IMG/VR virus record: IMGVR_UViG_2526164631_000021
Strand: one strand, 5' to 3'
Length of the DNA: 14,800 nt
From: a virus
Lineage: Duplodnaviria > Heunggongvirae > Uroviricota > Caudoviricetes
Position numbers and translations under genes: made by a program. The notes beneath the pieces are model-generated. The model saw nothing but the letters and a program-made list of their open reading frames with translations. It searched no databases and was not told the origin of the DNA. Numbering within the stretch: the stretch's first letter is position 1; every line of letters starts with the position of its first letter. Below are positions 9,746 through 11,341 of this stretch, piece by piece.

Positions 9746-10078
9746 ATGCAACACATTGACAGAGAAAAAGCGCAGCGACTGATTGAGCGGATGGAAGCGC
9801 TGGCGAAAGAAGAAAATGTCAACATCCAAAAAATAGCTGAATGTGGCCAGATAGTTCTTCGTCGTGAAAAAGACCTCAAACAACTGATGTCTGGCGAAAC
9901 CAGCAAAACATGGACTTCAGGTGAGGAGACGATTTATTGCAGCTTCTGCAATAAATCCCAGTACGAAGTCACAAAGGTGATTGCTGGACCGTCTGTTTAC
10001 ATCTGCAATGAGTGCGTGGATTTGTGCAATGAAATTATCAGGAGAGAAGTGACAGACAAAAAGGGAAAAAACGCATGA
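9746..10078 (+). CDS. protein with C-terminal ClpX-type C4 zinc-binding domain (ZBD) fused to an unrelated N-terminal region
   Basis: The C-terminal ...[38 protein letters not shown] is near-identical in pattern to the N-terminal zinc-binding domain of E. coli ClpX (...[38 protein letters not shown]...) with all four Cys conserved. The N-terminal ~60 aa is charged and helical-looking. AAGGGGGA RBS. There is no AAA+ module. Confidence 0.8.
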
Positions 10079-10410
10079 ACAGAAAACAAAAACAAGAGTT
10101 GAAATACTTCTTACGTAAAGAAATTGCCAGGCTTGAAGATGCAGAATCACAATCATCAGAAATTCCGTTCGGAATGGATATCAACGACGCCCGTATACTC
10201 CAGGCATACCGCATAGCTCAGGCTGCACTACAGGCAAAACCGTCAGATGGACTGGTTAGAGCAGTACGTTTCTATGAACTGGTAAAGCGTGAGAATCCGC
10301 CAGTCGAAACCGGAGCATGGAAAGACGCTGTTGACTGGGTGCTCAAAGAGGCTTGCCATGTTGTAAATATTGGTATCAAGGGAGGGGGATATGGCAACCA
10401 ACAACCGTAA
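10075..10410 (+). CDS. hypothetical protein, translationally coupled to the ZBD gene
   Basis: 111-aa ORF whose ATG overlaps the upstream stop (ATGA). No family recognised. Confidence 0.5.
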
Positions 10411-10585
10411 AGCAAAGATTCTGTTAGTTCGCAGAAACGATCCAGGCGTATGGCAGTGGGTGAGACTCAGCAACCGACGAATGGGGTTGATGAAATATTA
10501 CGGGATGATGGATTGCGGTTTTTGCAAAAAGCCCAGCGCGGCGCAAAACCGCTGGAAAAACCACTTTCGCATTAAAGGAGAGTGA
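10391..10585 (+). CDS. hypothetical small basic protein (start overlaps the end of the upstream gene)
   Basis: ORF 10370-10585. The internal ATG at 10391 is preceded by GGGAGGGGG and gives a 64-aa product ([30 protein letters not shown]...). It overlaps the last ~20 nt of the 10075-10410 gene out of frame. Confidence 0.4.
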   Translation: MATNNRKAKILLVRRNDPGVWQWVRLSNRRMGLMKYYGMMDCGFCKKPSAAQNRWKNHFRIKGE

Positions 10586-10586
10586 G

Positions 10587-10805
10587 GTGCCTACACTATT
10601 CAGGAAAAACTATCCGCGAAAGAGTAGAGCAATAGAATTTCTGTTTCTCATTCTGTTTATCGTGTTGATGATACCGATATCCCCGCTAATTTTTATCTGG
10701 GCAATCGGGAAAATAATTGAGCCAGTTATTGAATTGTATAACGACGTGGTATGGGCGTCGTTCAACACATTGCACAATAAAATTAATCCGTATAAGGAAA
10801 ACTGA
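10587..10805 (+). CDS. small membrane protein (one or two TM segments)
   Basis: 72 aa from a GTG start, 1 nt after the upstream stop, with AAAGGAG upstream. The hydrophobic stretch AIEFLFLILFIVLMIPISPLIFIWAIGKII is flanked by basic residues. Confidence 0.5.
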   Translation: MPTLFRKNYPRKSRAIEFLFLILFIVLMIPISPLIFIWAIGKIIEPVIELYNDVVWASFNTLHNKINPYKEN

Positions 10806-10806
10806 T

Positions 10807-11070
10807 ATGGCAACGTTGACAAAAAAAGAACAGGCATGGTTGAACGAATTACAGGACGTTCTTGATCGCTGTCCATCACCGAAAAAAATTGGTTTTTACA
10901 CCATTGGCGATAAAAACATTTACCTGTATGACCTACGCCGCATGGATGAAATCATGGAGGCTCTTGATAATCGTTCGTCGATGGATTGGTGTGTTGCTGT
11001 CCATGATATGAATGCCGGATTTGATGAAAAGATTTTGTTCCCCTCATCAGTTGAAAGCACAGCAGGATAA
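10807..11070 (+). CDS. hypothetical protein
   Basis: ORF 10717-11070. The ATG at 10807 with AAGGAAA upstream gives 87 aa and starts 1 nt after the upstream stop. No family recognised. Confidence 0.45.
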   Translation: MATLTKKEQAWLNELQDVLDRCPSPKKIGFYTIGDKNIYLYDLRRMDEIMEALDNRSSMDWCVAVHDMNAGFDEKILFPSSVESTAG

Positions 11071-11080
11071 GGACTAACAC

Positions 11081-11341
11081 ATGACAACGTTCACCGACAA
11101 AGAACTGATTAAAGAAATCAAAGAGCGCATCGGCAGCCTGGACGTTCGAGACAATATTGAACGCCGTGCTTATGAAATTGCACTGGCATCGCTGGAAGCA
11201 GAGCCAGTAGCATGGATGCATGTAAATAACGGCATCGGAATACCAGCAATAACAAGGAGTAAAGATGTTGCAGAGAGTTGGTTATCAAAAGGCTGGTATG
11301 TCCAACCCTTACATCTAGCCCAGCCTGCATCAAAGCTATAG
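11081..11341 (+). CDS. hypothetical protein (last gene of the cargo operon)
   Basis: 86-aa ORF with an AGGA RBS, followed immediately by a terminator-like hairpin. Confidence 0.5.
   Translation: MTTFTDKELIKEIKERIGSLDVRDNIERRAYEIALASLEAEPVAWMHVNNGIGIPAITRSKDVAESWLSKGWYVQPLHLAQPASKL

Follow-up and report, generated by a model that had tools for sequence, protein, structure and literature searches.

Five small genes that stand nearly end to end at one place in a prophage raise a simple question: do they work together as a unit, or have they been brought together as separate pieces? We asked this of genes g2 to g6, at positions 10075-11341 of a 14,800-nucleotide (nt) stretch of viral DNA (IMG/VR record IMGVR_UViG_2526164631_000021; the whole stretch is called the window below). 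The window is an Escherichia coli P88-like prophage (Xuanwuvirus, Peduoviridae) of the P2 family, and the nearest phages, P88 and PhiR44_2, are 97-98% identical to it over the aligned parts. An earlier note on this DNA had listed the overlaps and gaps between the five genes and had read the tight spacing as a sign of stoichiometric co-expression, as in a complex or a toxin-antitoxin-like module. The gene structure itself was confirmed by the sequence, and the RefSeq annotation of an identical prophage has the same five genes. Our results indicate that g2 to g6 are probably a mosaic string of independently exchangeable, lambda-like early accessory cassettes at the end of a P88-like early operon.

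We found that the five genes seldom occur together. The whole 1.7-kb block was present in 6 of 5426 complete E. coli genomes, with partial matches in 2271, whereas the single genes were found in 94 to 1019 of the genomes at ≥80% coverage (Table 1). Some part of g2 was present in 1006 genomes and some part of g6 in 1061; among the matches listed, these were mostly the C-terminal half of g2 and the N-terminal half of g6. That is, conservation of the gene set across genomes, which the earlier note had proposed to check, does not support a fixed module. They are conserved accessory genes of phages that also occur outside cargo contexts, an outcome that the note had itself set against its proposal.

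The neighbours of the genes are also exchanged. We compared 80 viral contigs carrying a gene of the family of g4 (Pfam DUF4014) and found seven unrelated families upstream and five unrelated families downstream. The gap was 1 nt to all five downstream families. It was also 1 nt to every upstream family but one, and the six upstream families at this distance all terminate in ...KG(E/D). The most common arrangement was g4 followed by g5 (42 of 77 viral loci), a count inflated by the high redundancy of these loci, which are E. coli prophages. g4 was present without g5 in phage 933W, and overall it was followed by four other genes besides g5. Likewise, g5 was present without g4 in UTI89, PhiR44_2, phage 689R5, an Edwardsiella lambda-like prophage and a Pectobacterium 186-like phage. 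In addition, the P88 and PhiR44_2 variants are missing some of g2 to g6. Since g4 and g5 are each found without the other, we see no obligate partnership between them, either as a toxin-antitoxin pair or as a fixed complex.

The cassettes are joined by a recurring linker. The sequence AAAGGAGAGTGA, followed by 0-2 nt and an ATG or GTG, is at once a ribosome binding site (RBS), the last codons and stop of the preceding gene, and a cassette joint. Across 610 kb of fetched loci, the + strand had 59 copies of this type of linker, compared to a random expectation of ~0.3; because the fetched loci are related, the count is descriptive and no formal test is attached to it. Proteins that are otherwise unrelated end in ...KGE, including lambda Ea22, XF1762-family proteins, 933W L0068, an L0069-like protein, the g2 protein of UTI89, and g3. 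The shared linker accounts for both these common protein ends and the near-zero gaps between genes, and the same linkers are the sites of cassette exchange. The conserved C-terminus of DUF4014 (...NPYKEN and a stop) encodes the RBS of whatever gene comes next. In the window, the copy between g3 and g4 is perfect. The copy between g2 and g3 is degenerate compared with the AAAGGAGAGTGA of UTI89 and has lost its TGA, and this loss has produced both an 8-residue tail on g2 and the 20-nt overlap of g2 with g3. In sister prophages the g2 protein terminates at ...IKGE, directly before the stop.

Breakpoints in the sister prophages UTI89 and P88 coincide with gene junctions. Similarity to P88 and UTI89 ends at 10384, there are breakpoints at 10385 and 10803, and the degenerate linker copy is the left breakpoint of both the replacement in UTI89 and the deletion in P88. 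In the UTI89 prophage, 10385-10802 (g3 and g4) has been swapped for a single XF1762-family gene, between flanks that are 96-97% identical to those of the window. Phage P88 has a clean 930-bp deletion of 10385-11314 (5685-5690 in the fetched P88 locus, L002) by which g2 now runs in frame into the final eight codons of g6 (...IKGDLAQPASKL). The P88 genome record is therefore missing g3, g4, g5 and most of g6, and it is consistent with g3 to g6 being dispensable for growth. It is well established that the mosaic joints of lambda-like phages sit at gene boundaries.

The DNA of the cassettes points to lambda-like phages as their source. Accessory genes of lambda-like prophages, Shiga toxin (Stx) phages among them, match g3, g4, g5 and the first half of g6 at 90-98% DNA identity. 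For all of these but g5, the exo-xis region is ~94% identical in 933W and in many Stx phages. The counterparts of the g4 protein are L0067 of 933W (92% amino acid identity) and gp27 of epsilon34 (54%), and an unannotated open reading frame (ORF) of 933W is a homologue of g3 (93% amino acid identity). The block is also AT-rich (43.9% G+C at 10075-11341), compared to 56.6% G+C from gene A to ParR and 53.5% on the portal side. The AT-richness together with the DNA identity is good support for horizontal acquisition from the lambda-like accessory pool, so the separate origin that the earlier note had suggested from composition holds.

The homologues sit in early regions of other phages. In the P22-like phage epsilon34, DUF4014 is in the ea region between an Ead/Ea22-like gene and a DUF551 gene. 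Two nin-like regions, one in phage 689R5 and one in a lambda-like prophage with dicB and hokD, contain DUF4014, g5 and an EaA-like gene. Further contexts are the ea region of the Edwardsiella lambda-like prophage and, directly after gene A, the Pectobacterium 186-like phage. Only 3 of the 80 DUF4014 viral loci were P2-like, all of them copies of the arrangement in the window; marker-gene typing left 42 of the 80 unclassified, and one representative context was resolved through its RefSeq annotation. The literature divides the exo-xis region into a conserved block and, downstream of it, variable genes, with early transcription from pL; it also reports that ea22 of 933W is split by an insertion, with L0065 as its remnant (PMC8614690). 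We found that the segment inserted in ea22 contains L0066-L0068, including DUF4014. With homologues in lambda-like early operons and joints at gene boundaries, the genes belong with the lambda-like exo-xis/ea and nin cassettes. In every context, the cassettes appear to lie in operons that would be under repression in lysogens and active early in the lytic cycle.

We also noted that the annotated start of L0068 in 933W appears to be too far upstream. The linker AAAGGAGAGTGAT-ATG suggests a 71-residue protein beginning with MAIAAS. The unannotated g3 homologue and L0068 are at 3980-4183 and 4113-4400 of the fetched locus L003.

Table 1. Features of the prophage around g2 to g6, with the number of complete E. 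coli genomes (of 5426) that contain each of the five genes at ≥80% coverage.
Feature	Position	Strand	Details	Genomes
Integrase gene	450-1448	-	Prophage gene; the helix-turn-helix repressor gene is also on the - strand	
Cox-like gene	1811	+	First gene of the long early operon (9.5 kb)	
Gene A (replication protein GPA)	5508-8330	+		
ParM (StbA) actin-like segregation protein and ParR-like partner	8407-9682	+	Directly after gene A	
Hairpin	9688-9711		10 bp, GC-rich, very stable; between the ParR-like and ClpX zinc-finger genes; -18.4 kcal/mol, z-score -7.7	
ClpX zinc-finger gene	9746-10078	+	110 amino acids; TGA overlaps the ATG of g2 at 10075 (ATGA)	
g2	10075-10410	+	111 amino acids	94
Degenerate linker copy	10374-10393	+	AAGGGAGGGGGATATG; stop lost	
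g3	10391-10585	+	64 amino acids; ATG behind GGGAGG; 20-nt out-of-frame overlap with g2; also on ~98-kb plasmids	511
Canonical cassette linker	10574-10589	+	AAAGGAGAGTGA-G-GTG; RBS of g4, stop of g3 (...KGE) and start of g4	
g4	10587-10805	+	72 amino acids; GTG start behind AAAGGAGAG; 1-nt gap after g3	1019
g5	10807-11070	+	87 amino acids; ATG start; 1-nt gap after g4	978
g6	11081-11341	+	86 amino acids; ATG start; 10-nt gap after g5	237
Stem-loop	11352-11374	+	9 base pairs, then AUUUC; -14.3 kcal/mol, z-score -3.9	
Portal gene	11833-12879	-	Beyond the five genes	

Close packing is not confined to the five genes. The coupled run extends to a sixth, the ClpX zinc-finger gene, which is joined to g2 by the ATGA overlap. 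Elsewhere in the operon, genes are separated by gaps of 4-11 nt or have 4-nt overlaps (3951/3948, 4214/4211 and 5139/5136). Because such packing is typical of the whole operon, it is no special property of 10075-11341. g2, g4, g5 and g6 have substitution patterns that fit coding sequence. Substitutions among homologues at codon positions 1, 2 and 3 numbered 7/15/33 for g2, 1/27/121 for g5 and 23/3/63 for g6; those of g4 (205/87/240) have the pattern of a hydrophobic protein.

The block is at the distal end of the rightward early operon, which runs from the cox-like gene through gene A, ParM/ParR and the ClpX zinc-finger gene to g2-g6. No promoter-like site was found upstream of the block in a scan for consensus promoters. 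The stem-loop after g6 did not satisfy the strict T-run rule of the terminator scan; it is likely the end of the early operon transcript. With no promoter ahead of the block and a stem-loop after g6, the five genes look like the last of the early operon.

We propose that gene-sized cassettes from the lambda-like accessory pool (exo-xis/'ea' and nin) would have been joined at gene boundaries, one type of which is the reused RBS/stop/start linker (AAAGGAGAGTGA with ATG or GTG). g2 to g6 would be transcribed by read-through of the early operon in lytic growth and translated by coupling; the position in the operon and the lack of a promoter-like site both suggest early expression. Each product would then act separately on a host or rival target. 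g4 would do so as a small protein of the inner membrane, g5 as a small, acidic and folded binding protein, and g2 and g6 as helical adaptor proteins of the Ea22/EaA type. The model for such roles would be the exo-xis proteins of lambda, which adjust both host physiology and the choice between lysis and lysogeny. By this analogy, we would expect the products to have individual effects on host physiology, on the lysis-lysogeny decision or in conflict between phages.

Several points weigh against this proposal. Independent action on the host is argued by analogy, and we found no molecular function for any of the five proteins. The frequent adjacency of g4 and g5 leaves room for a looser functional link between the two. 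The hairpin at 9688-9711, which had a terminator-like score on the minus strand only, may limit read-through into the accessory block, or may attenuate or stabilise the transcript. It is also conceivable that a ParR-regulated promoter, of a kind not recognised in the scan, might drive low expression in lysogens.

We examined the individual proteins by profile searches and structure prediction, as the earlier note had advised. All five proteins match PHROG families of unassigned function, g4 belongs to DUF4014, and g5 has a confidently predicted fold; there was no match to a known structure in the PDB, and the model of g3 is of low confidence. By sequence, none of the five matched a PDB chain below E=0.29. 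A scan of the proteins against NCBIfam gave no meaningful matches, and there were no toxin or antitoxin domains among the Pfam and NCBIfam matches. No family in PADLOC-DB v2 matched the six proteins or ParR at E≤0.01.

The g4 protein is a member of DUF4014 (PF13198) over model positions 2-72 of 72 (E=4e-26; 91.6 bits, compared to a cut-off of 23.2), and RefSeq names the identical protein 'DUF4014 family protein'. The earlier note had drawn attention to a hydrophobic segment in this 72-residue product, and rightly so: the Kyte-Doolittle maximum over 19 residues is 2.97, a strongly hydrophobic stretch, as in a membrane protein. The protein has a basic N-terminus, then ~30 hydrophobic residues with conserved P30, P33, W38 and G41, and, in the alignment, an invariant C-terminal motif, LHNKINPYKE(N/S). 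The family (phrog_1832; 141 clusters) is nearly always 72 residues long. Where its sources are named, they are Escherichia, Salmonella and Shigella, to which tblastn adds one Actinobacillus phage. We considered a holin or lysis protein and dropped this candidate as there are no lysis genes nearby. Product names such as 'released from the phage upon host infection' and '(sugar) acetyltransferase inhibitor' are propagated in records of DUF4014 proteins (e.g., NC_011976 gp27 and NC_000902). We found no support for these names in the searchable literature, and the epsilon34 genome paper is silent on gp27. We therefore treat them as unsupported annotation.

The g5 protein is acidic (pI 4.7) and belongs to an orphan family found across the Enterobacterales (phrog_1714; 145 clusters). 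AlphaFold2 predicts a small alpha/beta domain with a predicted local distance difference test (pLDDT) score of 90, and this fold had no structural match in the PDB. A profile search of 1.84 billion representatives found 197 relatives (as representatives at 50% identity), nearly all of them stand-alone proteins of ~85 residues. The few longer relatives have no Pfam domain, at least one is a visible read-through fusion, and they gave no domain-fusion clue.

g2 and g6 are modular. g2 (phrog_26213 and phrog_660) has a helical N-terminal part and a C-terminal module (residues ~57-103) that also closes various Ead-like proteins of lambda-like phages; its last 8 residues are the read-through tail. 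The N-terminal ~45 residues of g6 (phrog_5117, phrog_660 and phrog_60) form a module also seen at the head of EaA/DUF551-type proteins (motif ...IALASLEAEPVAW), and a short C-terminal part follows. This N-terminus is 86% identical over 44 amino acids to that of 933W L0065, and it also resembles a 689R5 protein annotated 'Ea22' (the second such gene, 146 amino acids, at 3648-4088 of locus L087). Neither g2 nor g6 matched the Ead/Ea22 family (PF13935) in Pfam at E≤0.1, and neither was matched by lambda Ea22 in BLASTP. Their similarity to this family is modular only.

The sole recognisable domain of the ClpX zinc-finger protein is PF06689, the ClpX-type N-terminal C4 zinc finger (E=8e-18). The gene is kept in every P88-like prophage examined (P88, PhiR44_2, UTI89 and U15A), and its product could be a decoy for the substrate- and adaptor-binding domain of ClpX. 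We noted that the protein is weakly similar to 933W L0063, which adjoins xis, and that the label 'carboxylate-amine ligase' that it has in some records is wrong.

We compared the block to known regions and systems. The gene families of the block recur in the exo-xis ('ea') variable region of lambda-like phages (lambda ea22/ea8.5/orf55; 933W L0063-L0069; the ea genes of P22 and epsilon34). The small size of the genes, the tight packing, the position in an early operon, the AT-richness, the mosaicism and a linker ending in ...KGE, as in lambda Ea22, are common to both. In contrast to that region, the block follows gene A and ParMR in the backbone of a P2-family phage and is not between exo and xis, g2 and g6 fall below the Pfam Ead_Ea22 threshold, and the exact combination of five genes is rare. 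The nin region of lambda-like phages is also made of small, overlapping or abutting, individually dispensable delayed-early genes with mosaic joints at their boundaries, but its backbone and regulatory circuit are different; here, the switch is of the P2 type (Cox and repressor).

The block also occupies a known slot. It lies between gene A, for the replication endonuclease, and the portal gene (Q), and P88 is arranged alike. This interval is a hypervariable hotspot of P2-like phages, and about a quarter of these phages have a partition system in it (PMC9122126). The supplementary table of that paper contains the arrangement 'StbA + Plasmid_stab_B + zf-C4_ClpX + hypothetical x3', and Rousset et al. 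(2022) handled arrangements with ParM as plasmid-partition cargo and not as defence (PMC9122126). The ParM/ParR-like pair in the P2-family prophage suggests that the phage genome is maintained or segregated like a plasmid. With the hotspot that holds tin/old and retrons (PMC9122126), the block has in common the slot next to cos, the high turnover of cargo and an already catalogued arrangement of ParM/StbA, ClpX zinc-finger and hypothetical genes. It differs in that it has no recognisable defence gene and continues the early operon instead of being a separately promoted unit. In the searchable literature, we found no report of a defence phenotype for the arrangement of ParM, ClpX zinc-finger and hypothetical genes.

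We weighed what else the genes might do. There is perhaps one further role that deserves some thought, if on the unlikely side: at least one cassette may be an uncharacterised weapon in conflict between phages or between phage and host, either a membrane-acting exclusion factor or an inhibitor of host defence, spread between lambda-like and P2-family phages by the shared linker as a portable recombination joint. The likeliest candidates would be the DUF4014 membrane protein, whose named matches are from enterobacterial hosts only, and the acidic g5 with its orphan fold. Overall, we give a defence or counter-defence role of single cassettes little weight.

One form of such a role is that at least one protein, most plausibly g5, is an early counter-defence inhibitor of host immunity and is mobile between phage families for this reason. 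We think this unlikely. It would fit a protein that is small, acidic and confidently predicted to fold, for which our searches found neither a cellular homologue nor a known fold, and which is under strong purifying selection in a family that spans the Enterobacterales; g5 is also in the early operon of three unrelated phage backbones. Against it, we found no resemblance to a characterised inhibitor (no search was made against an anti-defence library), the P88 and PhiR44_2 variants do without some of the genes, and the idea is a guess from the class of gene.

It is also doubtful, to our minds, that g3 (and perhaps others of the five) is no functional protein gene at all, and instead a decaying or filler ORF that is kept open between two conserved linkers. 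The protein is very basic (pI 11.0), and of the five, g3 has the weakest claim to a folded product, with an AlphaFold2 pLDDT of 52.8. The codon-position bias is weak (42/54/78), the middle block of the gene is replaced as a whole from one homologue to another, and in one of them a frame shift runs through the middle. In addition, the family is tiny (phrog_1380; 34 clusters, with named sources that include Escherichia and Salmonella), and the homologue in 933W is unannotated. However, the ORF is open in homologues down to ~50% identity, with invariant N- and C-terminal motifs, a good RBS and a PHROG family, and we found no Rfam match overlapping g3 that would indicate an RNA element under it.

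g3-like sequence was also present at 296 places on E. coli plasmids of ~98-100 kb (e.g., NZ_CP028125.1, 30251-30436). The plasmids of ~98 kb may be phage-plasmids, and g3 may circulate beyond lambda-like and P2-like prophages.

Small membrane proteins are common exclusion factors, as in T4 Imm and P22 SieA, and g4 could likewise be a membrane-acting exclusion protein if the block were anti-phage cargo expressed in the lysogen for superinfection exclusion or abortive infection, like tin/old. The slot is a described defence hotspot (PMC9122126), and in a 2026 survey, machine learning predicted antiviral roles for a minority (15-32%) of the unknown genes in P2 hotspots (PMC13586616). Nevertheless, we regard such cargo as quite improbable. 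The six proteins had no PADLOC match, and the genes are co-oriented and continuous with the early lytic operon, with no promoter-like site before them. In lambda-like phages the homologues are inside repressed early operons rather than in the 'moron' positions that are expressed in lysogens, and arrangements with ParM were treated by Rousset et al. as partition cargo (PMC9122126).

Type II toxin-antitoxin and abortive-infection modules with membrane effectors also consist of small coupled genes, one of them for a membrane protein, but in this block we found no obligate co-occurrence or conserved pairing, no toxin fold or toxin domain, no DNA-binding or other antitoxin domain, and no autoregulated promoter or other promoter of its own, and the partners are freely exchanged. 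That the five proteins are made in fixed proportions for one complex, or for a toxin-antitoxin-like module in which a neighbour neutralises the membrane effector g4, is very unlikely: the translational coupling is real, g4 is a membrane protein and g4-g5 at a 1-nt gap is the commonest arrangement, but the full set is rare compared to the single genes, g4 and g5 change or lose their neighbours, neither a toxin or antitoxin Pfam domain nor a promoter was found, and spacing of this kind is seen along the whole operon.

The reading of g2 to g6 as exchangeable cassettes carries a warning, that tight spacing in phage operons is poor evidence of a protein complex. Near-identical accessory genes move between lambda-like and P2-like temperate phages and land in a slot that is best known for anti-phage systems. 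The region is of an ordinary, already catalogued kind of mosaic accessory region, and nothing that we found points to a new kind of system. Roughly one complete E. coli genome in five has DUF4014, and the confidently predicted fold of g5 has no known structural relative. A function for either one would annotate thousands of prophage genes, including those of Shiga-toxin phages.

Some other features of the window are of interest. Three close GCACAA repeats at 11381-11412, just past the stem-loop at the end of the operon, overlap a small hairpin that is followed by a T-run. They fall in a non-coding, cos-proximal stretch of ~490 bp before the portal gene and may be a protein-binding array. At the other end of the window, a C-terminal fragment of an IS66-family transposase (11-529, + strand) abuts and overlaps the integrase gene (450-1448, - strand), and this is probably the edge of the prophage. 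Lastly, there were two Rfam matches above the gathering score on the + strand, isrK at 4579-4653 (66.7 bits) and C4 antisense RNA at 4689-4776 (81.1 bits). Both are inside the 5' part of an Ash-family ORF (4522-5139) of the early operon, and the site is an RNA immunity element in the style of P1, P7 and P4 in a P2-family phage.

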